Shown: positions 384-45,345, counted from the first letter of the stretch. The stretch is 45,610 bases of DNA from Deltaproteobacteria bacterium (GCA_016764955.1 JAESQZ010000056.1:1-45610); one strand, 5' to 3'. Notes: a model not told the origin generated them from the sequence alone. Translations and numbers: made by a program.

Positions 384-2186
384 TTATTCTTCATCTTCAA
401 TTCCCCCTCCAACGTGTCCAACTGCTTTTCCTTGAGATATCATCCAGGCTATTCTTGCAAAGTTAGCAGCTTGTAGAGCATCGTCTGGAGTTCTCTTTTG
501 ATCCTCAATGAAATATCTTCTGTATGGTCTTCTTGCAGTCCCAATATTGATTAGTTCTACTTGCTCATTTGTGAACTGATCAATAATCCATTCTATCTTA
601 GAGTAATCAGCTCCAGGTAGTATGATCCTTGGAGTGAGTTGTCCGTTATTATCAAAGGGGATTGTTACTAGATTTTTGATTGCATCAATGGAATAGGTTC
701 TGTCAATTTCATATTTGTTATCTTGACGATATTTTATCATCTCTTTGATGTTTGGTCGTGGTCTTTCAGGCCTTGTAAGATAAACTAGTCTCAAACATCT
801 AGGTCCAAAGTATTTCATTAGAGATTCTACTTGATGAGTTCCTCCTCCTGAATCTACTACAGATTGAGTAGCTCCATAAGCATCAATGATATTTCTTACG
901 ATTTGATATTGTTCATCTGAAGTTTTTCCTGCTAGTTTAGCTGCAAATAGTAATCTAAACACTGGACCTTGATTATTGATACATTGCCAAACCCATACTA
1001 CAGTTTTGGGTCCTCCTCCCCAATCTGCTCCAACAAATACATCACCTAGAGAATGATCAACGTCTTGAGATGCAACAAAAGATAGATTCTTGTCTACTAG
1101 CTTTAGCATTATTTCTTCAGTGAATGGCATCTCATCTCCCTGAACCATTAAAGCTAGATTGTTTCTTGCAAATTCTAGAGGATCATAGTAGGGGTCTTTT
1201 TTGATTTGCCATTCAATGCTCCACTCTGGATTTACTTTGTAGTCCTCAATAGCTGATAGTATGGTAATTGGAATTCTAGGATTTTGTATTTGATCCAAAT
1301 GGTATCCATGTCTGTAAAAGTTCTTTGGAGCTGCTGCAACAAAATCTCCATCTAGTACATCTAATAGATAATCATCTTCAATTAATCCTTCATCATTAAA
1401 CTCCAATCCATCTCTCCAGGAGTTGTTTGAGTATCCCATAAAATTTTCTCCACGTCTAAATTTATACTCCATTTGATTTGTTGTCTGCCATAATTTATCA
1501 TATTTTGAACTCTTGAATCCCCCTACTCCTCCAATGAGTGTATCCCCCATTGTATCAGCTTGAGTTTGTCGTGCATTGTTGAATCCAGTCCAGTCTTCAT
1601 CTTGGCCTTCATCAATTACTATTCTCATCAATGATTTTCCTTGAGCATTTGACCAATTCTCTCCAGGTAACATCATGTCAATGATTGATTGAGTCTTCTT
1701 TATGATGACTCGATTCTGAGATCCTAGTCTGCTTATTCCAGCTACATGTTTTGATAGAGGTTCATGACCAAATATGTCCTGCCTGAATTTTGTTTCAGTA
1801 AATGTTTTGAGGTTTGCATCTTTGAAGTTGAAATAAGTTTGATCATAGTTGTTTCTAGTAGTAGCTCTGTATGCAAGCTCTGTTCCCATTGTAGTAGTCT
1901 TTCCCCATTGTCTAGCCCATAGTAGAAACTTGAATGGATGATCATCTTTTACAACTTTGAGTAGCATTGGCCTGAGTCGTAATCTGTTTTTGATTCCTTT
2001 GATTGCTCCTCTGCAGTATAGTTCCCACTCTACTCTATCTGTAGGTAATTCAGGTAAATCTTCAATGGTTCTTTGTGAATCAATTAGTAGAGCTCTTTCA
2101 GTTGTAGCAGTGAGTCTAGCTTCATCTAGTCTTTCATCATAACTTAGAGGTGCTGATTCTTTTAGGATGCTATCTTTAGATCTCAA
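384..2186 (-). CDS. terL: terminase large subunit
   Basis: 600 aa. Walker A-like WARQWGKTT and Walker B-like IVIDEGQD, plus C-terminal nuclease-type acidic motifs VGADWGGG and VVDSGGG. A small-subunit candidate lies directly upstream. Confidence 0.9.
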   Translation of the reverse strand: MRSKDSILKESAPLSYDERLDEARLTATTERALLIDSQRTIEDLPELPTDRVEWELYCRGAIKGIKNRLRLRPMLLKVVKDDHPFKFLLWARQWGKTTTMGTELAYRATTRNNYDQTYFNFKDANLKTFTETKFRQDIFGHEPLSKHVAGISRLGSQNRVIIKKTQSIIDMMLPGENWSNAQGKSLMRIVIDEGQDEDWTGFNNARQTQADTMGDTLIGGVGGFKSSKYDKLWQTTNQMEYKFRRGENFMGYSNNSWRDGLEFNDEGLIEDDYLLDVLDGDFVAAAPKNFYRHGYHLDQIQNPRIPITILSAIEDYKVNPEWSIEWQIKKDPYYDPLEFARNNLALMVQGDEMPFTEEIMLKLVDKNLSFVASQDVDHSLGDVFVGADWGGGPKTVVWVWQCINNQGPVFRLLFAAKLAGKTSDEQYQIVRNIIDAYGATQSVVDSGGGTHQVESLMKYFGPRCLRLVYLTRPERPRPNIKEMIKYRQDNKYEIDRTYSIDAIKNLVTIPFDNNGQLTPRIILPGADYSKIEWIIDQFTNEQVELINIGTARRPYRRYFIEDQKRTPDDALQAANFARIAWMISQGKAVGHVGGGIEDEE

Positions 2187-2187
2187 T

Positions 2188-2661
2188 TTATTGTTCCTGT
2201 GGAATTAGTGTAAGAATTCGGGGGTTTTGTTTTTCTTGTTCTGCTAGTTTGACTGCATCTCTGTAAACGTATTGAGCGGCTTCATCAAATGCTGAGAGGT
2301 ATGGGATTATTTCTTTGATTTCTTTTAGTATTCTAGCTGAGGCAATTGATTTAGTATCATCATCTTTAATTTTATCATACTGTTTCCATAGTTCATCTTT
2401 GATGTGTTCTAGTTCGTGTAGTCTATCTAGATGTCTTTCAGTTAGAGTTTTGGCTATCTCGTAGAGTCTGCTTGTAACTTCAGCAGATAGTTTTCCTCTT
2501 ACTCTCCAGTAAGTTGATTCAGAGATTGTCTCTCCAGTCTGTTCCTTTACAAATTCTAGTGATTTTGTAATACCAAACTTTCTGATCTTAGTCCAGATTA
2601 CAGCATATTCACTGTCATTTAGTGTCATATTTCTTACATAGCTTGACAGTGATTCTGCCAA
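2188..2661 (-). CDS. terminase small subunit candidate
   Basis: 157 aa, ending 1 nt before the terL start. Helical and charged, with a possible N-terminal HTH. The call is positional only. The track start is TTG; an in-frame ATG lies at 2628. Confidence 0.4.
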   Translation of the reverse strand: MAESLSSYVRNMTLNDSEYAVIWTKIRKFGITKSLEFVKEQTGETISESTYWRVRGKLSAEVTSRLYEIAKTLTERHLDRLHELEHIKDELWKQYDKIKDDDTKSIASARILKEIKEIIPYLSAFDEAAQYVYRDAVKLAEQEKQNPRILTLIPQEQ

Positions 2662-2681
2662 TAATGAATTATTTGGAACTA

Positions 2682-2888
2682 TTACTCACGATCGCTTGAG
2701 TCATGTCTATCCATTCTTTTGATATTGGCATCTCTTTGCATGTCTATCTCAAAGAGTGCTTCACTGAATGAGTTTTGTTCTTCTTCAGTTAGGTTCTGAG
2801 GTTTGAATAGAGATAATGCCTCTACTAGATTCCAGATTTGTTTTGTTATTTCTTGCATGTAGTGTGTTTTAATTTCATCATATAACAC
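2682..2888 (-). CDS. hypothetical protein
   Basis: 68-aa ORF on the coding strand with acidic, helical composition. Confidence 0.5.
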   Translation of the reverse strand: MLYDEIKTHYMQEITKQIWNLVEALSLFKPQNLTEEEQNSFSEALFEIDMQRDANIKRMDRHDSSDRE

Positions 2889-2920
2889 CTGGTCTTGTAG
2901 GCCAAACTAGAGTTTTAATA

Positions 2921-3085
2921 TTAAAATTTCTTCCATGTGATACCAAACCAATATCTGCAGTCTATACAGCATCTGTATTTTATTGTCTTTAGTGGCATCC
3001 TAGTTAGTTCATCCTCGTATACTTCCTCTCTACATGTGCTACAGATTGCTAACTTTCTCTTTTCTCTTCTTCTTGTTCTCCCCAC
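2921..3085 (-). CDS. small zinc-ribbon protein (below track cutoff)
   Basis: GTG start, 54 aa: MGRTRRREKRKLAICSTCREEVYEDELTRMPLKTIKYRCCIDCRYWFGITWKKF, with CxxC...CxxC. It fills an otherwise 240-nt gap. I checked the frame codon by codon. Confidence 0.35.
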   Translation of the reverse strand: MGRTRRREKRKLAICSTCREEVYEDELTRMPLKTIKYRCCIDCRYWFGITWKKF

Positions 3086-3128
3086 ATGGAGATTGTAATG
3101 GTTATTTGCAAAGGGAAGTTATTGAATA

Positions 3129-3323
3129 TTAGATTCTAGGTTTACTCTCATGTTTTCTTCTTCTAGCTTCAGCTCCTCTAGGAAGATTACTAACTATGAT
3201 TCTACAGCAAGGACAAATTCTCCCATCCCATTTGATGAATAATGAACAGGTTCTGCAAAAGGGATTTCCAATAAAGTATCGTTGTTTACCTTTGTAGTTT
3301 TTACAAATTCCTTTACAGGTCAT
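3129..3323 (-). CDS. zinc-ribbon protein
   Basis: 64 aa with CxxxC, CxxC and CPCC clusters and a basic C-terminus. Confidence 0.6.
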   Translation of the reverse strand: MTCKGICKNYKGKQRYFIGNPFCRTCSLFIKWDGRICPCCRIIVSNLPRGAEARRRKHESKPRI

Positions 3324-3325
3324 GA

Positions 3326-3592
3326 TTAGAACCTCAAAGCTTGTTTGTAGAATGATTTGTAATGAGTAAAGGTTTCACTTGTTATGAATTCTCTTATCCA
3401 CTGATAGATAGGATTCTGATAGTATCTATTCATGGCTCTCAAAACAGGACTATCATAATTTTCTTTTACCCATAGTTTAGCTGCAATTCTAGTTGATTCA
3501 TAAGATCTATATTTTGATGGTCTGCATCCGCAAGTTCTTTCCCCTCTAATTTGTTCAAAATCCTTTTTGCATGTAATACATTTGATTATCAT
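3326..3592 (-). CDS. hypothetical Cys-rich protein
   Basis: 88 aa with N-terminal CxxC...CGC. TAATG overlap with the upstream gene at 3592. Confidence 0.6.
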   Translation of the reverse strand: MIIKCITCKKDFEQIRGERTCGCRPSKYRSYESTRIAAKLWVKENYDSPVLRAMNRYYQNPIYQWIREFITSETFTHYKSFYKQALRF

Positions 3593-3867
3593 TAAGCATC
3601 AATTATTTTTCCATCTCTAATGAAGTAATGAGACTTGCATGGAAGAGAGAAACTCCCTATTGATGGAGTTAATGTTGGCTTACCTTCATCCATTATCAGA
3701 GTCCAGTTCATGTGATTTAGTGGTGTTACTACTCTTTCTCCACAGCCACAAACACAGAGATGAGTTGCTGTATTGTATTCTTTAGAGATGTATAGTATTT
3801 CTTCCTCTATTCTATCAGGGATGAATGTGACAAAACAAGCTGTGATTGATTTTAGGAGTGAAGCCAT
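3592..3867 (-). CDS. small CxxC...CxxH zinc protein, paralog 1 of 3
   Basis: 91 aa with CVCGCGE ... TLTPSIGSFSLPCKSHYFIRDGKIIDA. The C-terminal motif is shared with 4142..4420. The architecture reminds me of DUF6527, from memory and not verified. Confidence 0.6.
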   Translation of the reverse strand: MASLLKSITACFVTFIPDRIEEEILYISKEYNTATHLCVCGCGERVVTPLNHMNWTLIMDEGKPTLTPSIGSFSLPCKSHYFIRDGKIIDA

Positions 3868-9031: not shown

Positions 9032-9222
9032 TTTGAATAATTCCTGATAATTTCTTGAACATATTCCTCAGCAGTGTCTTTAGCTGCCATCTCATAAGCT
9101 CTTTTTCTAACTTTAGCTATAATTATTTGAGGATCAGTAATGTTTTGAGCAATACATGAGCTAACTATTCCTCTTAATTCTCGTAGTCTTCCCCCTCTGA
9201 TTTCATTTGGTCCTGCCATCAT
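9028..9222 (-). CDS. hypothetical protein
   Basis: The track start at 9240 lies inside the upstream gene. Tandem ATGs at 9222 and 9219 overlap the upstream TGA. About 64 aa: MMAGPNEIRGGRLRELRG... Confidence 0.55.
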   Translation of the reverse strand: MMAGPNEIRGGRLRELRGIVSSCIAQNITDPQIIIAKVRKRAYEMAAKDTAEEYVQEIIRNYSK

Positions 9223-9896
9223 GAAAAACCATTCCCACAAACATCATCAGTTCTTTTGTTTTGTTTGATTAGTCTCATGCCTTTAGCATAATGTTTAGAT
9301 TGTTTCTCTAGTTTTTTGCACATTCGGTATAATTTAGGATGCTTTTTCTTGATGTAATCCCATCTTAGAAGACTATTGAAAGGGCAAAAATAACAACCTG
9401 ATTTTATCACATAAGGGAATCCTTTCTCAAAGATGTATCTCTCACAATCTAATCTATCCATTTTCCAATCAACTAAAGGATAGTGTTTTGTAATGTAATC
9501 TTCTTTAGCTGTTCTGCATCTTCTTGTTTCTGCTACATCAATTCCAATGTACTCATTAATTTTGAATCCTTTGTAGATTGTTTTGTAAAATTTATGAATT
9601 GGTCCTACTTTAAAATCCCTAGTACACCAACGTTTGAACATGTCTGGAAAAACTTTTCTTGTAATGCATTTATTGAATAGAGTTACTAGTCCAAAGTTTC
9701 TTACAGTTTTGAAAGGAATATCTTTTTTCTCTAAGAATTTTTTCATATACTCTACTGTATTGTAAGTTTCAGGAAGTTCTCCTCCAGTATCAGCAAACAC
9801 TACTTGATCAATTGGAATTTTCTTTTCAATCATTTTTAGAATCATTGCAGTAGAATCTACTCCTGCTCCATAGGATGCTATGTTGAGTTGTTTCAT
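9219..9896 (-). CDS. PAPS reductase / PP-loop ATP pyrophosphatase family protein
   Basis: 225 aa. N-terminal PP-loop ASYGAGVDSTAM (SGGxDS-type) and a C-terminal CYFCP cysteine pair. This matches the phage and archaeal-virus PAPS-reductase-like family. Confidence 0.75.
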   Translation of the reverse strand: MKQLNIASYGAGVDSTAMILKMIEKKIPIDQVVFADTGGELPETYNTVEYMKKFLEKKDIPFKTVRNFGLVTLFNKCITRKVFPDMFKRWCTRDFKVGPIHKFYKTIYKGFKINEYIGIDVAETRRCRTAKEDYITKHYPLVDWKMDRLDCERYIFEKGFPYVIKSGCYFCPFNSLLRWDYIKKKHPKLYRMCKKLEKQSKHYAKGMRLIKQNKRTDDVCGNGFS

Positions 9897-10051
9897 TTGT
9901 AAGTCACCATAATAGAAATATAATATCCTCGAATAGCTGGTTTGAAATTGAAAACTCCGTTTCGATTAAACCATGTGATTGATGTTCTCTTTTTTTGATA
10001 GAGTTTTCCAATAGATAAATAAAATCCAAATATTCTAATCCAAAAATTCAT
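9893..10051 (-). CDS. micro-ORF, 52 aa, hydrophobic N-terminus
   Basis: MNFWIRIFGFYLSIGKLYQKKRTSITWFNRNGVFNFKPAIRGYYISIMVTYK. TAATG overlap upstream and ATGA overlap downstream. Confidence 0.4.
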   Translation of the reverse strand: MNFWIRIFGFYLSIGKLYQKKRTSITWFNRNGVFNFKPAIRGYYISIMVTYK

Positions 10052-11808
10052 TATGGAAACATCTCCTCAGAAGCTTTGACTTGACCTTTAGATTCTGTAG
10101 CTAGACTCAAATCAATTAACATCTTTACACTTGAACTAAATCCTCCACTAGTAGGAGAATATCCTGTAGCCTCTGCAAGTTCAGGTCTAGTCAGAGAGTT
10201 TATCGGATCATAATAGATGTTACACAAAAAATCTAATACCTTAGATGAACATGCTCCAAGTTTATTCTTCCAATGATTTAGTAAATCTTCATGGTTTGTA
10301 GGAACAGGATCTAATCCTCCAGCTCTTTGAATTCCTGCAGGAGTAGGAGTAATTGTTCCATTTTCTTCTATGTATCCTGCATCTCTAAGATTTTTGATTG
10401 ATGTGCTGTAACCGCCTGAAGTTGGCCTATATCTTGAATAAACTGCAAGATGTTTTCTAGTCATGGGTTTGTTAAACTCTACTAATTTTTTCAAACAAGT
10501 TTCAGCACATTTGTTTAAAATAATTTCATCATCATTTAGAGATTCAACAGATACAGAATGTGATTGAAAATTATTCACAGTCCTTGGAATTATTCCCTCT
10601 TCTTGAATTTGGTTTGGTATAGTTGGTTTTTCTATCTTTGTTTCAATTGAAAGAGCTTTGTTAATTTCATTTACTGCATGATCACAAGTATCAAAGATTT
10701 CATTTTTGGATTTATTGATTTTAACAAAACCCATTTTTAGAATTTTAAGTAATGATCTCTTATCATGTAATTCTTGAACAGTTGAAATGAATTTTACTGT
10801 AGCCTCATCAAATCCTTTTTTGTATGCTCTGTTTAATTCTCCTGTATCTTGTTTAATTATGGGTTGATTCTTTTCAGATTGTCTAAGTTTTGTTTGTAGT
10901 TCTTGTATTTTTAATTGAAGCCCTTCCTTTGTTTTTAGATCCTGTTCTACTTCTAAATCCAATTCAGAGAAATTTGTTAATAATCCTGTGATTTTCTTTT
11001 TGTTTGCTGGAATGTATTCTTTAATATTTCCAAGCTCCTCATGAGATGTTTTAGTTTCATAAGCTTTGACTAGAACATTATCATCAGCAATTGCAGGACC
11101 AAAGGCATAGAATTCATGCTTTAGTTTTCTCAATATTTTAGTATCTTTAATTCCAAGTTCTTCTCCTGCTCTTTTTCTATCAATATCTAAGGCACATCTA
11201 CCAATGAATTTTGTGTTGAGTTCAGCAGCTACATCTTTGTTTAATTTTGAAATTCTCTGAGTGGCTCCAATTAATCCATAACCTCTTTTTCTTCCTCTGC
11301 TAGCCAAAGCTGCAACTGCAGCAAGTGATTCTGAACGTCCAGACTTTGATTCAGGAGCAAATATATGAATTTCATCAAGCCAAATGAGACATTGATGCCA
11401 TAGAGTTTTTGGAAGGTTAATCAGTGCCTCACAAAATAGTTTTACAAATCTAATCCTTTCAAATGGATTTAGTTCATACAAATCAATTATAACATCTGCA
11501 CCTGTCTCCATGATTCTTTTTGCCAATAATGCAGCATGTTTAGAATCAATTTGGATATCAGCTTGTGGTCCTTTACCAACAAGTAAGAAAGAATAGTGTT
11601 CTCGTAAAGTTGGAAATTCTCCTTCAGGATCAATAATTATTTGTTGAACTTTTCCATGAGCTTCTTCAATTCCTTTTCTCATGGCATGACTCTTTCCTCC
11701 TCCAGAATTTGCTTGGAGTAATGCTCTTGATTTTATTAGTTCTTGAAGATTTACAAGAATTGGTTTTTTCTTTTCTACATCTAAGAAAATTCGTAGCCAA
11801 TCAGTCAT
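10051..11808 (-). CDS. HerA/FtsK-superfamily P-loop ATPase with C-terminal tandem winged-helix repeats
   Basis: 585 aa. Walker A ANSGGGKSHA, Walker B LIWLDEIHIFAP, and RGRKRGYGLIGATQR typical of HerA/DUF87-like ATPases. Two C-terminal repeats: RPTSGGYSTSIKNLRDAGYI and SPTSGGFSSSVKMLIDLSL. Confidence 0.75.
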   Translation of the reverse strand: MTDWLRIFLDVEKKKPILVNLQELIKSRALLQANSGGGKSHAMRKGIEEAHGKVQQIIIDPEGEFPTLREHYSFLLVGKGPQADIQIDSKHAALLAKRIMETGADVIIDLYELNPFERIRFVKLFCEALINLPKTLWHQCLIWLDEIHIFAPESKSGRSESLAAVAALASRGRKRGYGLIGATQRISKLNKDVAAELNTKFIGRCALDIDRKRAGEELGIKDTKILRKLKHEFYAFGPAIADDNVLVKAYETKTSHEELGNIKEYIPANKKKITGLLTNFSELDLEVEQDLKTKEGLQLKIQELQTKLRQSEKNQPIIKQDTGELNRAYKKGFDEATVKFISTVQELHDKRSLLKILKMGFVKINKSKNEIFDTCDHAVNEINKALSIETKIEKPTIPNQIQEEGIIPRTVNNFQSHSVSVESLNDDEIILNKCAETCLKKLVEFNKPMTRKHLAVYSRYRPTSGGYSTSIKNLRDAGYIEENGTITPTPAGIQRAGGLDPVPTNHEDLLNHWKNKLGACSSKVLDFLCNIYYDPINSLTRPELAEATGYSPTSGGFSSSVKMLIDLSLATESKGQVKASEEMFP

Positions 11809-12799: not shown

Positions 12800-12882
12800 T
12801 ATTTTTCCTCCTCAAAATCGTCAAGAGTAGTTCCATCATGATCAGCATTATTGGTTTTTTTTCTCTTATCTAGAAAGCTCAT
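12799..12882 (-). CDS. micro-ORF, 27 aa
   Basis: MSFLDKRKKTNNADHDGTTLDDFEEEK. It exactly bridges two genes, with an ATGA overlap upstream and a TAATG overlap downstream. Confidence 0.3.
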   Translation of the reverse strand: MSFLDKRKKTNNADHDGTTLDDFEEEK

Positions 12883-14051
12883 TGTCCTTTCCTCACAATT
12901 TGATTGCCATGACAAAGAACTCCAGGAGTTTTTACTCTAGCGTATAGTTCAGCATAATTTCTTTTAGGATACATTTTCTTGATCATATGCCAAAGATCAG
13001 GTTTCTTGGAATGTTCAGATCTTAACTCTTCAATTATGCTAGAAAATAATTTTGCAGGAACAGGCATTTCTCCCTTGATAGCCATTAGGAGATTTTCATG
13101 TTGATTTCTATTCCAAGAACCTACTCCAATCTTTTTCTTATTCCAAACAAATTCCTGTTTTACTTTGAACCCTGCAGCATCTAAAACAGCTTTGTAGAAT
13201 GGAATTGGATATTTTACATCAATGGATTTATCTCCAACTAGTAAATTATCAATTTTAATTTCAACTTCTGAATATTGTATTGATGGACTCATCCAGAAAA
13301 ACATTATGGCATTATCAGCAGCAGCTAATTTGCTAAAGTCCTGAATGAGTTCATCAATTGTCATTGTAGGATAATGTGTTTCAGCAGCTCCTCTTCCTCC
13401 TTTGTCCTCATATCCATAAGGCACATCAGCTAGGAATACATCAGAAATTGTTTTTGGTAATGGAACCTTTGGAAGATTTCTATCTTTCCTGGTTAGTTGA
13501 GTGTGGAGAGTTGTGATTTTTGTTTCTCCAGTGTAGAGTTTTTTCTTTTGTTCAAGAGTAGCATTACTATGAATATGTAATGCTCTCTCAAAGGTTGTAG
13601 TAGACATGTCAGCTTCTTTAGCTGCTTTAGCTGTAGCTTTACCCTTAGCCTCTTTAGATGCTAAGGTTCCAGATTTTTGTCTGGATTCAGCTTGAACCAC
13701 TTCTTTTTCATAGGTAATTAGAGATGCTTCAAATTTTTGATATTTACTAAGATGTCTTCTCTTGAGATTCATTGAGTTGATGTAATCTATTTTTTCCACT
13801 TCAGAATCAAACTCCCATTGTTCGTATTTGATATCATCAATTCTTTGTTTACCTAGAATTTCATCTCTAGTGTATCCGTCAACTAGATTCCAATCCTCAT
13901 CAGCACAAACAGGTTTTAGTTGTCCTTTGGATTCCATGTCATCATACATTTTGTTAAAATCTTTTTGAGTAGGTCTAGGAGTTATTGATTTATACAAATC
14001 ATTATGAAGAATTTCAGAACGTGAGATAGTTCCTGATTTGATTAGTTTCAT
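12879..14051 (-). CDS. ParB-like nuclease domain fused to an MT-A70-family N6-adenine DNA methyltransferase
   Basis: 390 aa. The N-terminus has NLVDGYTRDEIL (ParB DGxxR-type). The C-terminus has ADVPYGY (a DPPW variant), HYPTMTIDEL, IMFFWMS, FVWNKKKIGVGSWNRNQHENLL. Confidence 0.8.
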   Translation of the reverse strand: MKLIKSGTISRSEILHNDLYKSITPRPTQKDFNKMYDDMESKGQLKPVCADEDWNLVDGYTRDEILGKQRIDDIKYEQWEFDSEVEKIDYINSMNLKRRHLSKYQKFEASLITYEKEVVQAESRQKSGTLASKEAKGKATAKAAKEADMSTTTFERALHIHSNATLEQKKKLYTGETKITTLHTQLTRKDRNLPKVPLPKTISDVFLADVPYGYEDKGGRGAAETHYPTMTIDELIQDFSKLAAADNAIMFFWMSPSIQYSEVEIKIDNLLVGDKSIDVKYPIPFYKAVLDAAGFKVKQEFVWNKKKIGVGSWNRNQHENLLMAIKGEMPVPAKLFSSIIEELRSEHSKKPDLWHMIKKMYPKRNYAELYARVKTPGVLCHGNQIVRKGQ

Positions 14052-21969: not shown

Positions 21970-23736
21970 CTAAGAATCAACTAGAACGTTATCTGTATCA
22001 GCTAGAGAAGTTCCTGAAGCATTAACCAAAACACATCTTACAGTGATTGAATCTCCTGGACTAAAAGCTCCTTCTCTAATTACCTCAACTTTGTTTTCTA
22101 ATGCATTTAGATCATCAGAGGGAGGTTGGTTTCTAGAATATGAATTGGCTATAGTTGTAGTTCCTGTATCATAAATTGTATCAAAATATTCCTGAACACT
22201 TGATTGTAATCTCCAAGTTACTAGAGCTATCTCATCTCTTGTAGGTGAATCAGGATAAGTAACTTTGATTCGGATTTGTCCTGTTGCTGGAGAAGTGACT
22301 GTTAGAGTTGGTTTAGATGGTGTAGATAGTGTTCCAGTGGTATCACTAACAATAGTCGAGAATGGTCCATTCACTTGATTTTTTAGAATTCTTGCATGTC
22401 CGTAAAATAATGTACTTTCAACTTGTGATTCAGTTTCAAAAATTACATTAGTTTGGCCTGTCACTCCAACAGGTCGAGTAATTTTTGTACTTCCTCCCTG
22501 ACCTGTAAAGCTCCCATTGCCATCTACTGCATTTGATAAATTCCATTCAACCTCAGCTATGTTAATTCCTGCCTCAAGTGTTACTGTAAATTTTAATTTA
22601 GTTCCTACATTCTCAAAAACTACTGTAGGAGCTGCAAGAGCTGAAGTTGTAGCACTAGCTAGTATTGTACTAATTAGAGTCCCAAATTCATTTCTGACTT
22701 CAAAAATATAATCATGTAATGTATTTGGAGGAAGAAAATCATCATCATACGTGTTTGTTACTCCCGAAGATGGAGTATCATCTTTCACTACAGTCTCTAA
22801 AGGAATTCCCAAGTCTCTAATCAAAGTGAACCGTAATTGTTTTCCAGTAGGTTGAGTCCATGAAGCCCTTATTGTGTTAAAATCAAGTGCTGTAACTGAG
22901 AATCCTACATCTCCTGCATTGTATGAACCATCAGTGTTAGTTTGGAGTGGTCCAATATAATCAGAATTGCCAACGTCATTTTTTGCCCTTACCCAAAAAT
23001 AGTATGTAGTTCCTGCAGATAATCCATTTACAGTAACTTTGGTATCAGTCAGATTTTTTGTTGCAGCATCAGTGATAGGAGTATCTGGAACTCCGTTAGT
23101 TTCTGCAGCAGAGAGAGAATATTCCACATCATAAGTTAATGGAAGACTACCTATTGCTGAAGGATCCCATAAGATATCTATTGTAGTATCAGTGTGTCCA
23201 GATGAGACAACGTTTAGAGGAATAGTTGGAGCTAGCTCAGATTCATCGTTTTTTTTTGTAGTTCCAATGTTGATAGTAGATTGGTCTGTACTCCAAAATG
23301 ATATGTCAAGAAAATCATTAACTGCAGTAACTATCAAAGGACTACTTCCAATTCCTGAAACTATGGTTCCTCCAAGTGTAATGATTGGATCAGTTGAGCG
23401 AATGTGTAATCGTATAGTACATAATAGTAATGTTGGAATGTGTGCAAATGTTATAGTTGTATTTCCATCTACATTCCCTGTAAGTTGTCTATCACTGTGA
23501 ATTCCAAAATCAATTACTAGAGGATTTGTAATATCTCCAAGTTCTGAAATTTTTAATGGATTTGGATTTATGTTTGGAGATCCTCCGTCTACTGATTCAC
23601 TTCCAGAGCTTCCTATTCCTCTTGCAGATTCTGATCCTCCTATTTTTAATGATTCAAGTAAATCTCGATTGTTTTTCTTTTGGAATTTTATGATTCTTGA
23701 TTCGGTATTTGTTTGTCTAGTAGCTCGAGTTGACAA
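21970..23736 (-). CDS. tail fibre/adhesin with fibronectin type III-like domains
   Basis: 588 aa, TTG start. FN3 pattern at residues 169-264 (TIDILWDPS...TYDVEYS...LSAGTTYYFWVRAKNDVGNSDY), then a second similar unit (IRASWTQP...HDYIFEVRNEFG). Confidence 0.6.
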   Translation of the reverse strand: MSTRATRQTNTESRIIKFQKKNNRDLLESLKIGGSESARGIGSSGSESVDGGSPNINPNPLKISELGDITNPLVIDFGIHSDRQLTGNVDGNTTITFAHIPTLLLCTIRLHIRSTDPIITLGGTIVSGIGSSPLIVTAVNDFLDISFWSTDQSTINIGTTKKNDESELAPTIPLNVVSSGHTDTTIDILWDPSAIGSLPLTYDVEYSLSAAETNGVPDTPITDAATKNLTDTKVTVNGLSAGTTYYFWVRAKNDVGNSDYIGPLQTNTDGSYNAGDVGFSVTALDFNTIRASWTQPTGKQLRFTLIRDLGIPLETVVKDDTPSSGVTNTYDDDFLPPNTLHDYIFEVRNEFGTLISTILASATTSALAAPTVVFENVGTKLKFTVTLEAGINIAEVEWNLSNAVDGNGSFTGQGGSTKITRPVGVTGQTNVIFETESQVESTLFYGHARILKNQVNGPFSTIVSDTTGTLSTPSKPTLTVTSPATGQIRIKVTYPDSPTRDEIALVTWRLQSSVQEYFDTIYDTGTTTIANSYSRNQPPSDDLNALENKVEVIREGAFSPGDSITVRCVLVNASGTSLADTDNVLVDS

Positions 23737-42207: not shown

Positions 42208-42468
42208 CTAAGCACATTCCAATCCTTTGATGTGTCTATTGAAATAAGCACCTTTAGAACCAGCTCCCTCAAAGGAATCAAAGTTTCTTCGTGTAATGTT
42301 ACAATAATTGTATGTTCTTCCAGGTAATTCGATACTCATAGTGTTATCCTCAAACCAATTTACAGTTCCAACAAATGAACTTGACTGAGTAAATGATTCT
42401 TCTCTGTCTGCTCCAATTAGTGCAGCAGTTAATACTTTGGATTTGAAATTGAAACTAGCTTTTTTTTT
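42208..42468 (-). CDS. -1 frame extension of 42429..42617 with no start codon at its 5' end
   Basis: 86 sense codons run from the A9 tract to the TAG at 42208-42210: KKKASFNFKSKVLTAALIGADREESFTQSSSFVGTVNWFEDNTMSIELPGRTYNYCNITRRNFDSFEGAGSKGAYFNRHIKGLECA. The frame is closed by a TAA (42475-42477) two codons before the tract. The first in-frame ATG appears only at 42339. Confidence 0.45.
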   Translation of the reverse strand, partial: KKKASFNFKSKVLTAALIGADREESFTQSSSFVGTVNWFEDNTMSIELPGRTYNYCNITRRNFDSFEGAGSKGAYFNRHIKGLECA

Positions 42469-42617
42469 GTTAGTTTAGTTAATGCTTGGAGTGCATCCTT
42501 GTAATTGAAATGTGTCCATCGGGCAATTGATGCAGCTATTGCTTCCATGTTTTCTCCAGGACCTGATTTTCCTCCATATTTTTTCAAGGCCTTTTTAGCT
42601 ACTACTTCTAAACTCAT
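42429..42617 (-). CDS. hypothetical 62-aa protein carrying a slippery tract near its 3' end
   Basis: The ORF ends ...LTKLTKKKLVSISNPKY. The codons aca aaa aaa aag contain A_AAA_AAG. Confidence 0.6.
   Translation of the reverse strand: MSLEVVAKKALKKYGGKSGPGENMEAIAASIARWTHFNYKDALQALTKLTKKKLVSISNPKY
42459..42465 (-). promoter_or_regulatory. candidate -1 ribosomal slippery heptamer A_AAA_AAG
   Basis: Lies within the T9 run at 42460-42468 (A9 on the minus strand), in the correct X_XXY_YYZ phase for the zero frame, followed by GCT. Confidence 0.45.
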
Positions 42618-42619
42618 GA

Positions 42620-43330
42620 TTAATTATCCTCCTCATCAGAGATTAATGTTACGGGTCCTAATGACTCATATTTCTTGATGAGTGATTTGTCATTGGATTT
42701 TATCTTAATTGATTTGATTCTGAGTTTGTCTAGTGGAATATCTCTATCCATTCTGACTTCAGCCTGATCAGCATAGTTTGCATCCATCCTCCCATCCTTT
42801 TTAGTTTCTGTTGTTTCACCTAAATCTCTAAAGAAGGGATCATAAGTGACAGCTTCTGCTCCATTAGAACGAACATCATCTCCATCATACTCTATTGTAA
42901 CTCCAGAATCATAAATGTCTGCCATCTCTTCATTTGGTGTTACTGCAGTGAATTGATAGCGGAATCTTTTCTCATCTTCACCTACTCCAGTAGTTCCGTT
43001 TTTTAGATATGCATCAAGTTCTGCAATAGCAGTTCCTCTAAAAAATGATGGAGAGTCTTTGAGCTGTTCTCTTGATAGTTTGTTTGTATTCTCAATGTCT
43101 GCCAAGAAATTATTGTACATTTTTCCAAGCTCTTTATTCTGTGATGCAATATCTTCCCAAATTGCTTTGAGGCCTTGAGGATTATCTCCAACTGAAACAA
43201 TTGTGTAATGATTCATTATTCCTCTGAGATTATCATCAACTGAAAATCCTTGAGGATCATAGTTATGTTTCTTGTACATTGCTGAAACTTGATCAGTCTC
43301 TTTGATGTGAGTGATTCCAGCTTCAATCAT
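42620..43330 (-). CDS. ADP-ribosyltransferase-like minor head protein candidate
   Basis: 236 aa from the first ATG. The spaced motifs SFFRG (R98), YQFTAVT (T128-T131) and DQAEV (Q189-x-E191) fit the R / S-T-S / Q-x-E pattern of C3/C2-type ARTs. Its position next to the portal matches phage MuF-associated toxin domains. By eye only. Confidence 0.35.
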   Translation of the reverse strand: MIEAGITHIKETDQVSAMYKKHNYDPQGFSVDDNLRGIMNHYTIVSVGDNPQGLKAIWEDIASQNKELGKMYNNFLADIENTNKLSREQLKDSPSFFRGTAIAELDAYLKNGTTGVGEDEKRFRYQFTAVTPNEEMADIYDSGVTIEYDGDDVRSNGAEAVTYDPFFRDLGETTETKKDGRMDANYADQAEVRMDRDIPLDKLRIKSIKIKSNDKSLIKKYESLGPVTLISDEEDN

Positions 43331-43624
43331 TGCTCTTGAATCTTCTTTAGTTTTATCGTAGGATTTCTTTATCTCCGTATTCCTGACTTTAGTTGCTTCT
43401 TTTCTTTTAGACTCATCTTTTGGAGCAGGAGAATCCTTCTTTGATGGTTCTTTTGATTCAGGATTATTTTTCTCTAAATCATCAAAGAAACTTTTGATTG
43501 CTTCTCCCTTATCTTCCCCTTCAGGAATGAAAATATGATGTCCTTTAGCTGTAATCCATTCTCCAGGTTTATCTTCAGCAGCATTTAGAGCCTTTAGTTG
43601 TCTAGCTAGTAGAGCTTTTTTTTT
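43331..43624 (-). CDS. start-less upstream continuation of 42620..43330, in the -1 frame of the portal gene
   Basis: 98 sense codons with no ATG, GTG or TTG and no stop: KKKALLARQLKALNAAEDKPGEWITAKGHHIFIPEGEDKGEAIKSFFDDLEKNNPESKEPSKKDSPAPKDESKRKEATKVRNTEIKKSYDKTKEDSRA. They run straight into MIEAG. The frame opens after a TAG at 43640-43642. I checked it triplet by triplet. Confidence 0.55.
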
Positions 43625-45345
43625 CCATCTAACTTTTGTCTAGTCTTATCTAGCTTCAATTTAGAGCCATCACCCAAATCAATACCCTTTCCATCTCCAG
43701 AACCTCCAGGAGTTGTCTCTGCTCCTTCCTCAACTTTATCTACATAGTTTTCAATTCCAGCTAGTTCTCCAAAGTCTTCATCTTTTAGTTGCTTTCTTGA
43801 ATCCAAGTCCATTACTGCCTCAATCTTATCAAACCATTCCTCTATTCTGAGATCATCCCAAGCTAGTTTGATTCTGAATTTCTTGAGGAACTCTGAATTC
43901 TTTTTGTCATTTGCGTATAGTAATCTAAACCATCTCTGATACCATTGTGAAGATATTTGTCGTCCAATCATGTTTCGTAATGGATTAATTACTGTAGATG
44001 TTGCAAGCTGAATCTTTCCAATCATTGTAGCTCTGTTTGATTGTGATTCATCATAGAACATTGATTGAGGTAATCCTATTGTACTAACACAATATCTCAA
44101 AAGAAATTCTACTAAATCTTTAAACTCTGTAACTTTTGGTTGGAAATCTACAGTATGATGTGTTACATCTTCAGGATTTTCAAGTAAAATATTTGGACCT
44201 CCTCTAACTAGATTACTTGCAATATCTTGATACTCTTCTTGTTTCTCTTTTTTTGTATTTCCTTGAGGCCTTACTGTCATGACATACATTCCAGCCCATG
44301 TAGCCTCAGCCATTGCAGGGAAGTTTACACCAATCATTTTTCTAATTACTCTAGATGCATCAAGCATCGGTAATGCCATTGAATCACCATATAACCAGGA
44401 GTTTCTTGTTTTAGCAGAGATAACAGGATTCCAAAGATAAATCATATCTCTAGCTGGAACTTGAGCGTATGCGTTTCTCCACTGTACAGATTTTAATCTC
44501 CATGTTTTAGGATCAGCTTGGATTATTCCCAAATCTCTAGCATGTGCAAATTTCATTGATGAGGGAATTTGTGGATAATGTTTGCCATCAATCTTTACAG
44601 GAGTATCATATCCAAAGATGAGAGCTGCTCTATTGAATAGATTAGTACATGAAATTAATGCTGTAATTTTTTCTTGAAATGATGTGTCAAGTTCTCCATC
44701 ATGATCACGATTTAGTTGGTTATCAATTGCAATTAGTGAATCTATGATTTTTTGAGCTTCTGGAGATTCCATATCTGCTTTGTCTTTTTTCTGATCACCT
44801 GAAGGATTGATTAGTTCTAGTTCAGGTTTGAATCCAGTTCCAACAATAAATTTAGTTAATGCCTCCATTAGTGGACCAATGAAGGTTTGTCTTGCCATTG
44901 CTTCTAATACAATGTAATCTAGATCCTGCATTGGATTGACAAAATATGAGAAAACCTCAAAGTTATTTCTTCGAGTTGTTACATCTGCTGCAGTTAATGG
45001 AGCTCCAGTTATAGGATCAGCAACAGATAATGACATTTGAGGAATCCAATTATCTACAACTTCTGGATCATACTGTGCTTCAGTGTTCATCCAAGATGCT
45101 TTGATTTGATGCATAGAGTTTAGGATTGGTCCTCCTGCATGTGAGATTTTTACATTAGTTGCTTTTCCTGATTGGTCTTTGATTATCTCTTTTACAAATG
45201 GTTTGAATCCATCAACTGAGAGAGAAGTGATTTGTTTTGCTTTTGCTTTAGGATTAAATGTTGGAATGGAAGTGTTAGGGATAATTTCAATTTTCTCAGG
45301 AACGTTTGGTTTCTCATGGTATGGAGTTCCTATTGGGGATTTCAT
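43606..45345 (-). CDS. portal protein candidate
   Basis: 579 aa. It is the largest head-module gene, upstream of the scaffold and capsid genes, and adjacent to terL if the window ends are joined. I read no diagnostic motif. Confidence 0.6.
   Translation of the reverse strand: MKSPIGTPYHEKPNVPEKIEIIPNTSIPTFNPKAKAKQITSLSVDGFKPFVKEIIKDQSGKATNVKISHAGGPILNSMHQIKASWMNTEAQYDPEVVDNWIPQMSLSVADPITGAPLTAADVTTRRNNFEVFSYFVNPMQDLDYIVLEAMARQTFIGPLMEALTKFIVGTGFKPELELINPSGDQKKDKADMESPEAQKIIDSLIAIDNQLNRDHDGELDTSFQEKITALISCTNLFNRAALIFGYDTPVKIDGKHYPQIPSSMKFAHARDLGIIQADPKTWRLKSVQWRNAYAQVPARDMIYLWNPVISAKTRNSWLYGDSMALPMLDASRVIRKMIGVNFPAMAEATWAGMYVMTVRPQGNTKKEKQEEYQDIASNLVRGGPNILLENPEDVTHHTVDFQPKVTEFKDLVEFLLRYCVSTIGLPQSMFYDESQSNRATMIGKIQLATSTVINPLRNMIGRQISSQWYQRWFRLLYANDKKNSEFLKKFRIKLAWDDLRIEEWFDKIEAVMDLDSRKQLKDEDFGELAGIENYVDKVEEGAETTPGGSGDGKGIDLGDGSKLKLDKTRQKLDGKKKLY
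43615..43621 (-). promoter_or_regulatory. candidate -1 ribosomal slippery heptamer A_AAA_AAG
   Basis: The portal frame reads gat gga aaa aaa aag ctc tac tag. The heptamer is in X_XXY_YYZ phase within the T9 run at 43617-43625, followed by GCT as at the other site. Confidence 0.5.

Follow-up and report, generated by a model that had tools for sequence, protein, structure and literature searches.

Nine-adenine tracts at the 3' ends of head-protein genes as candidate recoding sites in probable Nitrosopumilus tailed viruses

Bacterial RNA polymerase slips efficiently in vivo on runs of 9 A/T, and Thermus thermophilus dnaX has a run of this 9-nucleotide (nt) length, with an RNA:DNA hybrid of 9-10 bp (Atkins et al. 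2016, PMC5009743). T. thermophilus dnaX, Shigella mxiE and spa13 and the orfAB genes of insertion sequences (IS) carry such a run of about 9 A/T within the coding region and require no RNA structure, and genes that use transcriptional slippage yield a pair of products that have the N-terminus in common and are made in a fixed ratio (PMC5009743). Both descriptions fit what is seen or predicted in a 45,610-bp stretch of DNA deposited as “Deltaproteobacteria bacterium” (GCA_016764955.1, JAESQZ010000056.1:1-45610; this whole stretch is called the window below). Here the gene for a candidate portal protein of 579 amino acids (aa) ends in a run of nine adenines (A9), and a long frame without a start codon continues from the run in the -1 register. 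From the sequence of this locus and its relatives, we consider it very probable that programmed -1 recoding at the run, whatever its mechanism, makes a fusion of the portal with a C-terminal cargo. Unlike the dnaX, mxiE and IS sites, this one lies in head genes (portal and, in relatives, prohead protease) of what are probably archaeal tailed viruses and would add interchangeable cassettes, and polymerase slippage is here a proposal.

The run also holds, in phase, the A_AAA_AAG heptamer of Escherichia coli dnaX and of IS911/IS1-type sites (A_AAA_AAC or A_AAA_AAA in relatives), with a shift that is always -1. In contrast to those sites, the window and its relatives have neither a Shine-Dalgarno-like element nor a stem-loop as stimulator, the run comprises at least nine adenines and occurs in any codon phase, and it is kept in two relatives in which the cargo is already in frame.

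As proposed here, recoding at the 3' end of a gene makes a minority C-terminal extension and fixes virion stoichiometry in T7/T3 10A/10B, Lactobacillus phage A2, Listeria phages PSA and A118 and lambda G/GT (PMC5009743). Those carriers are capsid, tail or chaperone proteins with Ig-like or chaperone extensions, whereas the carrier here would be a portal or maturation protease and the extension an enzyme-like or DNA-binding cargo bound for the inside of the capsid. In polyvalent proteins and other head-packaged effectors, including T4 Alt, head-module genes encode domains of the ADP-ribosyltransferase (ART) fold and other effectors as fusions to portal, MuF or protease, which are presumed to be packaged and injected (Iyer et al. 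2017, PMC5512222; Iyer et al. 2022, PMC9503650). The cargo described here likewise belongs to the head-morphogenesis module, is linked to portal or protease and combines several effector domains variably. Polyvalent fusions, however, are ordinary in-frame genes, while the link here runs through a conserved A9 tract and only some carriers would be loaded. Iyer et al. 2017 noted that few polyvalent proteins are seen in archaea (PMC5512222). The closest precedent in the searched literature is a comment in the PRFect paper that frameshifting might link pairs of MuF and VIP2-ART genes (PMC10885494). In retroviral and totiviral Gag-Pol, too, recoding attaches an enzyme to some copies of a structural protein so that it is co-assembled into the particle (PMC5009743); the proteins, virus realm and signal are unrelated to those described here, and the analogy is functional only.

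In the searchable literature, we found no recoding site at a portal or head-protease gene and no programmed transcriptional slippage in archaea or their viruses, and the word “portal” is absent from the 2016 recoding review (PMC5009743). What is new is the combination of the known fusion of head proteins and effectors with a slippage tract, which extends known principles.

The portal gene 3' end and its -1 frame

The 579-aa open reading frame (ORF) ends gat gga aaa aaa aag ctc tac TAG, with A_AAA_AAG in X_XXY_YYZ phase with the portal frame (site 1). This agrees with the first-pass annotation of the stretch, except that the run had been placed at 43617-43625, one base too high (Table 1). The remaining features of the -1 frame given there were all reproduced. 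A TAG five codons upstream closes the frame, so that it cannot be entered from farther upstream, and the frame then stays open to 42620, which makes 339 codons in all and 334 counted from the run. Its earliest ATG, GTG or TTG is ATG 43330, the start of the annotated 236-aa ORF that it joins. The start-less part amounts to 98 codons and leaves an apparent gap of 275 nt (43331-43605).

An open frame of this length is beyond chance; of 1784 open stretches found off-frame in the window's long genes, a single one has at least 85 codons, and the maximum is 95. The start-less stretches of site 1 and of a second site described below have a coding score of 0.368 per codon, at the upper end of true in-frame windows (0.275 +/- 0.066), and off-frames score -0.84 and -1.20. 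No Shine-Dalgarno-like motif was found upstream of ATG 43330, compared with about half of the window's genes that have one. This ATG is absent from the homologue in locus L005, where homology continues uninterrupted across the position (related loci and proteins are cited by our L and P numbers). The coding score, conservation in relatives and an excess of synonymous changes (below) uphold the earlier view that the start-less frame encodes real protein. An ATT start after GGAG inside the WIT unit of the cargo (Table 1; cctGGAGaatggATT) was also considered and was rejected, as the preceding Trp is conserved and the motif is missing in L005.

Three products are predicted: A9 mRNA would give the 579-aa portal, A10 mRNA or a -1 slip the fusion of 908 aa, and A8 mRNA a 580-aa variant. 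The predicted junction peptide of the fusion is LDGKKKALLAR (QKLDGKKKALLAR). The 0-frame stop lies 2 codons past the run at site 1 and 9 codons past it at site 2.

Table 1. Window features at the two candidate recoding sites, with the terminase gene
Feature	Coordinates	Strand	Basis
Portal gene, 0 frame, 579 aa	43606..45345	minus	ORF call; C-terminus LDGKKKLY, TAG at 43606-43608
TAG closing the -1 frame, 5 codons before the A9 run	43640..43642	minus	sequence
A9 tract, candidate slippage site 1 (gga aaa aaa aag ctc)	43616..43624	minus	homologous A9/A10 junctions in 30 non-redundant contexts
WIT unit (GEWITAKGHHIFIPEGEDKGEAIKSFFDDLEK), -1 frame, small beta-hairpin + helix	43469..43564	minus	conserved with L005, L023
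K/E/S/P-rich linker, -1 frame, start-less	43331..43468	minus	KKDSP and SxDKT motifs common with L005; coding score
236-aa ORF (JKY15_02075), C-terminal cargo: helical region, then ART-fold domain at ~42623-43201	42620..43330	minus	ORF, AF2, Foldseek
62-aa ORF, wHTH-like, ends TKKKLVSISNPKY*, upstream partner at site 2	42429..42617	minus	own AGGAGG + ATG
A9 tract, candidate slippage site 2 (aca aaa aaa aag cta)	42460..42468	minus	A9+GCT motif and phase as at site 1
-1 extension at site 2, leader ASFNFKSK + KTSC at ~42223-42351	42208..42465	minus	85 codons from the run; Pfam
Terminase large subunit	384..2186	minus	phrog_675, E 1e-22

The cargo contains a unit with the pattern GxWITxxGxxIFIPxG plus a helix (the WIT unit), followed by a linker rich in K, E, S and P; no Pfam model matches the unit. 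It is a recurrent inter-domain unit of giant multidomain phage-type proteins of 800-2440 aa, with up to 7 copies in P0006 and further occurrences in P0011, P0012, P0027, P0036, P0059, P0115 and P0117. The WIT unit and the ART-like domain recur up to 7 times within proteins of this size, and in P0007 the cassette of both is placed after the MuF C-terminus. In polyvalent proteins the WIT unit may serve for processing or docking.

Pfam and PHROG scans gave nothing significant for the 333-aa cargo, a search of the PDB with sequence profiles gave no match for the ART-like domain, and a scan of viral contigs with a two-sequence cargo alignment gave no matches. AlphaFold2 (AF2) was run on the whole 333-aa extension with the two-sequence alignment. 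The mean predicted local distance difference test (pLDDT) of 44.8 made this model unusable, and it was replaced by one of the domain alone, built from 36 sequences, with a pLDDT of 91.8 and a predicted template-modelling score (pTM) of 0.87. The 36-sequence alignment itself was too diverse for deriving search patterns. Nearly all of the best PDB matches found with Foldseek are ARTs (DarT, Tpt1/KptA, cholera and LT toxins, Rhs ART toxins and PARPs). R55, E61, Y120 and E148 are invariant across the 36 homologues, one of which matches PF03496 (9.7e-5) and one PF01129 (0.018). Of the catalytic motifs of the ART superfamily (R, S/T-x-S/T and [QE]-x-E), assigned here by eye, R55 would belong to the first (FxRGT) and E148 to the last ([EQ]xEVR); the Ser/Thr motif between them (FTAV[ST], SLS) varies among the homologues. 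The first-pass annotation had called this ORF an annotated ART-like protein. The fold is borne out by AF2 and Foldseek; the annotation is not, since the public record reads “hypothetical protein” and Pfam gives no match. According to the model, the label “ART-like” appears right at the level of the fold, and we infer that the cargo may be an active ADP-ribosyltransferase.

The minus strand of the window has only three A9 runs. One of them, missed by the first-pass annotation along with the spread of such sites through the family, lies 1.1 kb downstream of site 1, again with A_AAA_AAG in phase (site 2). It lies in a 62-aa ORF with a weak match to GMT-wHTH (winged helix-turn-helix; E 0.047), which is colinear with the middle part of the single-ORF homologues P0002, L005 and L023. 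The -1 frame opens 2 codons before the run and spans 88 codons (85 from the run). About 42 start-less codons past the run precede its first start codon, ATG 42339, and a weak AGGA motif lies before this ATG. KTSC (PF13619) matches residues 39-81 of the -1 translation with an E value of 6.5e-11 and 42.2 bits, compared with a gathering cutoff of 25, and the match begins upstream of ATG 42339. KTSC is a DNA-binding domain according to Iyer et al. 2022 (PMC9503650). The extension aligns with those in L001, L015, L006, L024, L025 and L026. The predicted site 2 fusion is a 136-aa wHTH-KTSC protein with the junction peptide LTKLTKKKASFNFK.

The third run (23249-23257, minus strand, aca aaa aaa aac gat) is in frame inside an ORF (23736..21970) of 588 aa with fn3 and a tip-attachment-J-like Ig domain, and forms no junction. 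Both other frames stop almost immediately there, and slippage would truncate the protein. Among the pooled loci described below, it is the sole run of at least nine adenines outside cargo junctions.

Junctions in related viruses

Related loci were fetched by homology to the portal and to KTSC, and not by the A run. Sources were NCBI metagenome-assembled genomes (MAGs), ENA, Logan, JGI and IMG/VR, and the pooled set comprised 379 kb of coding strand. Runs of at least nine adenines in these loci (n = 44) are -1 junctions in 40 cases and in-frame portal-KTSC junctions in 3; 1 is unrelated. After near-duplicates were removed, 30 contexts were left in which the A run and a start-less -1 frame recur, a conservation that the first-pass annotation had named as a check. 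The arrangement is thereby seen in about 30 related virus lineages, which are marine and probably archaeal. The run is A9 in 27 of these contexts, A10 in 3 and shorter in 0. In the three A10 contexts a flanking base has turned to A, and a -1 shift is still required. Codon offset 2 accounts for 22 contexts, offset 1 for 6 and offset 0 for 2; the run is followed by C in 23 of them and by G in 7. Run length is kept regardless of codon phase (offsets 0, 1 and 2) or of the encoded residues, and the junction peptides vary (GKKKL, TKKKA, SKKN, QKKS, EKKN). A conserved KKK protein feature, such as a cleavage site, was rejected as an explanation because the residues change with phase and it is the nucleotides that stay constant.

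On the coding strands of all loci, runs of 5, 6, 7, 8, 9 and 10 adenines number 1192, 463, 166, 22, 42 and 3, respectively. T runs of 7, 8 and 9 on the same strand number 47, 31 and 2, with no spike at 9. The spike at A9 stems from the junction sites, and the dip at A8 suggests that slippage-prone runs are avoided in ordinary coding sequence.

Within 80 codons past the run, close relatives differ in the cargo frame by 318 synonymous and 247 non-synonymous changes (56% synonymous). The corresponding values for the other two frames are 70/514 and 41/539 (7-12%). The excess indicates that the start-less frames are translated and are entered at the run, and the cargo frame directly after the run is under purifying selection.

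The carriers are 3' ends of portal or head-protease genes followed by start-less cargo frames, and the shift is always -1. In P0002, whose full frame is found in L005, the WIT unit, linker, ART-like domain, wHTH and KTSC form one 471-codon frame that is colinear with the window's site 1 extension, 62-aa ORF and KTSC extension. This frame opens 1 codon before an A9 run that ends a 254-aa upstream gene. In L023, the gene for a head maturation protease of 194 aa (phrog_3270, phrog_7015) closes with gca aaa aaa aac tag; 527 codons in the -1 frame come next (WIT-ART-wHTH-KTSC), and after them the major capsid protein (MCP) gene. In L001 (58% identity), L015 (80%), L006 (57%) and L026, the portal ends at A9 and the -1 frame leads into a KTSC extension. 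The leader of this extension is conserved as L(S/T)F(S/T)Fx(D/S)K. When the KTSC extension was used as a probe, 42 IMG/VR loci were recovered. In about 33 of the 42, the KTSC frame opens a few nucleotides before an A9 or A10 run at which an ORF of 191-310 codons ends. About 19 of 120 portal homologues have KKK[AL], EKKS or SKKN at most 3 residues before the stop, as is expected of such a junction. By comparison, 13 cargo-free portal relatives showed no run of at least eight adenines at the gene end and no long -1 frame.

Single in-frame proteins also exist. Portal-KTSC proteins are P0159 (L024), P0178 and P0191 (L025, matching L036), and P0198 is an in-frame portal-WIT-cargo protein. The A9+GCT tract is present at the in-frame portal-KTSC junction in L024 (3187-3195), L025 (3275-3283) and L036 (2262-2270). 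L025 and L036 have identical flanks and ORF lengths, and these three in-frame loci, the ones whose DNA was read, were counted as two distinct sites (L024 and L025/L036). Small indels past the run, of 1 nt in L024 and about 16 nt in L025, have brought the extension back into frame, and in both L024 and L025 the two alternative frames stop within a few codons. L026 has the upstream flank of L025 with the extension out of frame. Because A9 is kept whichever frame follows, the tract itself would make two products in either arrangement, and rescue of a frameshift alone would not account for its presence in the in-frame relatives. In those lineages the arrangement suggests that slippage would yield a minority of short portal, the default frame setting the ratio of long to short. 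The existence of in-frame portal-KTSC and portal-WIT-cargo proteins supports the portal-cargo fusion as the functional form. The earlier proposal of a portal with a C-terminal linker and enzyme-like cargo is thus consistent with the homologous junctions, the in-frame fusions and the synonymous excess in the cargo frame.

Besides the in-frame fusion and the A9 junction, relatives show a third arrangement, in which KTSC is encoded separately. In L053, L060, L061 and L063 (~2340-3650) it is N-terminal in a protein of about 430-720 aa, the gene for which has a start codon and ribosome-binding site of its own and directly follows a 582-aa portal-sized ORF. In L070 (a Nitrosopumilus MAG provirus), an in-frame A9 at 3565-3573, near the N-terminus of a protease/scaffold-like gene, forms no junction. 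The portal gene of L015 has a 1-nt frame break at ~600-615 outside any homopolymer (cca cta gaa, expected cca cta aga), which may be either an assembly error or a defective variant.

Proposed mechanism and alternatives

Standard expression would give the 579-aa portal, the stop lying two codons past the run, and a minority of expression events would shift -1 at the run to give a 908-aa protein of portal, WIT unit, linker and ART-fold domain. We infer both the occurrence and the rate of this shift from sequence comparison. A -1 shift at every site is equivalent to one A added to the mRNA, and we lean slightly towards a mainly transcriptional shift, by slippage of RNA polymerase on A9. The polymerase would slip on a 9-bp homopolymeric hybrid and insert one A, and the A10 mRNA would be translated normally into the fusion; -1 ribosomal slippage on A_AAA_AAG may add to it. 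Portal C-termini normally face the capsid interior and a portal has 12 subunits, so that a few of the 12 would bring cargo into the head. From there the cargo could be released and, if packaged and ejected as we suppose, delivered to the host with the DNA, a loading logic like that of Gag-Pol. At site 2, the same device would add the putatively DNA-binding KTSC domain to a small wHTH protein, and in related viruses it would add KTSC or WIT-ART-wHTH-KTSC cassettes to the portal or the head maturation protease.

Put more generally, and tentatively, polymerase slippage on A9 in marine tailed viruses that infect the ammonia-oxidising archaeon Nitrosopumilus might be a general, modular switch that adds effector cassettes to sub-stoichiometric carriers inside the head. 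The cassettes of such a switch might be the ART-fold enzyme and KTSC, each led by a previously undescribed WIT unit or an FxF leader, and the carriers the portal and prohead protease. Conceivably, the register of the downstream frame would tune the ratio of loaded to unloaded carriers.

The A9 tracts have sequence properties described for slippage sites, being A/T runs of at least 9 nt, about the length of the RNA:DNA hybrid, within a coding region. Folding of the 81 nt past six of the sites was no better than that of shuffled sequences (z from -0.92 to +1.54), and no shared upstream motif or Shine-Dalgarno-like element was found at the junction sites. The polymerase is favoured because the run has at least nine adenines in 30 of 30 contexts, the site is indifferent to phase and next base, stimulators are absent and A9 is kept in the in-frame relatives.

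Several points weigh against the reading proposed here. The Foldseek scores of the ART-like model are modest and at fold level (best E 4.5e-3, probability 0.97, TM 0.41-0.46), and the portal label rests on synteny and weak matches (below). As the loci were fetched by portal and KTSC homology, the enrichment statistics describe this virus group and are no unbiased sample. To our knowledge, programmed transcriptional slippage has never been shown for an archaeal RNA polymerase. A review of archaeal recoding lists ribosomal cases only (PMC8211752). The remaining points bear on the mechanism. The classical A_AAA_AAG is found at both window sites, and every A9 or A10 junction contains an in-phase slippery XXXYYYZ heptamer in each phase, so that a ribosomal -1 shift fits all of the sites; since this is true of any A9, the feature does not discriminate between mechanisms. 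The phase is skewed to offset 2; many offset-2 sites are homologous, and the skew says little either way. The 0-frame stop 0-5 codons past the run could act as a ribosomal stimulator.

The in-phase heptamers and the nearby 0-frame stop are points for programmed ribosomal -1 frameshifting, in which tandem tRNA-Lys would slip on A_AAA_AAG (A_AAA_AAA or A_AAA_AAC in relatives), or the ribosome would slide on the lysine-encoding poly(A), so that a fixed share of ribosomes would reach the cargo frame with unedited A9 mRNA as template. Sliding of ribosomes on iterated AAA codons was reportedly described by Koutmou et al. in 2015. Archaeal precedents for a -1 shift are the A-rich heptamer A-AAA-AAT of Sulfolobus fucA1 and cases in haloarchaeal tailed viruses (PMC8211752), and phage structural genes typically shift at a low level with no stimulator (PMC5009743). 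The ribosome, however, needs only 6-7 adenines, yet none of the 30 contexts has fewer than nine, and A7 (166 runs elsewhere) is never a junction. Neither a stem-loop or pseudoknot at the six sites folded nor a conserved upstream Shine-Dalgarno-like element accompanies the run, and A9 is kept where a shift is unneeded (L024, L025/L036). We therefore regard a purely ribosomal shift as rather unlikely. The dnaX/IS-type shift on the heptamer put forward in the first-pass annotation finds no specific support, as what is conserved is a run of at least nine adenines and not the heptamer, and as the run occurs in three phases, is followed more often by C than by G, lacks structure and is kept where the extension is already in frame.

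Slippage could also act on the DNA, since homopolymers of 9-10 bases are prone to replication slippage, which would toggle the viral population between A9 (portal only) and A10 (constitutive fusion). The occurrence of both in-frame and out-of-frame arrangements among relatives fits such phase variation. It is nevertheless improbable, as none of the 30 out-of-frame contexts has the corresponding ON allele (A10 between unchanged flanks, extension in frame), the three A10 cases stem from flanking substitutions and still need a -1 shift, and the in-frame relatives keep A9 and differ by downstream indels. That the cargo genes make no fusion and start at ATG 43330, ATG 42339 or non-canonical codons, the open frame upstream being a decaying ancestral fusion, is very improbable. 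Both ATGs are present, the latter with the weak AGGA, and L053 and L060 encode KTSC proteins with their own start and ribosome-binding site. Against this, the start-less stretches have full coding potential, an excess of synonymous changes and protein-level conservation from the first codon past the run; ATG 43330 is neither conserved nor preceded by a ribosome-binding site, and internal starts would cut both the KTSC domain and the WIT unit. The explanation that we rate lowest is a sequencing or assembly artefact that hides A10 or another indel in an ordinary 908-aa gene. Homopolymers are error-prone on some sequencing platforms, and L015 has its unrelated frame break in the portal gene. The same length and shift direction are nonetheless found at 39 sites (30 non-redundant contexts) from many projects, the 0-frame stops come right past the run, and the short product has the length of cargo-free portals. 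A general homopolymer error was rejected because other A7 and A8 runs in these genes are in frame and the shift is always -1. The alternative raised earlier, that the run is really A10, is refuted by the 30 contexts from independent assemblies, in which A9 or a substitution-made A10 always calls for -1.

If recoding at the run is accepted, gene callers miss the N-terminal parts of such cargo or start them at an internal Met, as with the 236-aa ORF of the window and P0002. The fusions can be recovered by a simple annotation rule: A9 or A10 where a portal or protease gene ends (3'), and a start-less -1 frame beyond it. With the device, which is open to testing, a tailed virus would bring a small, defined number of enzyme or DNA-binding molecules into its capsid by tying them to some of the 12 portal subunits or to the protease. 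The range of ART effectors packaged in heads, such as T4 Alt and polyvalent proteins, would also come to include viruses of an archaeal group that is ecologically dominant and in which these proteins were considered scarce. The 30 natural variants (three phases, in and out of frame, A9 and A10) form a comparative set for distinguishing polymerase from ribosome, and would supply archaeal transcription with its first model of programmed slippage. Should the tentative modular switch be correct, programmed transcriptional slippage would be on record for the first time in Archaea or their viruses, as would recoding in a portal or head-protease gene, and the tailed-virus lineage would have a packaging strategy like that of Gag-Pol.

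Portal label, genome and host

The 579-aa protein gave no Pfam match and, by profile search, no match to PDB sequences. Its match to a PHROG portal is weak (E 0.09), as are those of 4 of 38 homologues (E 0.03-0.1). It is labelled a portal because of gene order, together with this weak match. The order is canonical (terminase large subunit (TerL), portal, cargo, protease/scaffold, MCP), and the candidate has the size and position expected of a portal (about 500-600 aa, after TerL and before protease/scaffold and MCP). In L024 and L026 the gene for TerL immediately precedes that for the portal, as it would in the window on a circular or permuted genome. This adjacency on a circle suggests a complete or nearly complete permuted genome; a search of the window for a terminal direct repeat found none.

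All three matches to GTDB representative genomes (3/3) are Nitrosopumilus sp. MAGs, and one portal homologue is from another Nitrosopumilus MAG. Pfam labels on the 1.89-Mb contig that carries P0203 were uninformative about the host. The host is probably Nitrosopumilus, on the basis of binning and of a GC content (33.8%) that fits, and the label “Deltaproteobacteria bacterium” is probably a binning error. The window coincides with an entire contig of an NCBI MAG, the proteins of which bear JKY15_ locus tags, and its genes lie almost all on the minus strand. Its non-structural half includes, on that strand, genes for a HerA/DUF87-like ATPase (10051-11808), an MT-A70-family methyltransferase (12879-14051) and a protein with a phosphoadenosine phosphosulfate (PAPS)-reductase domain (9219-9896).

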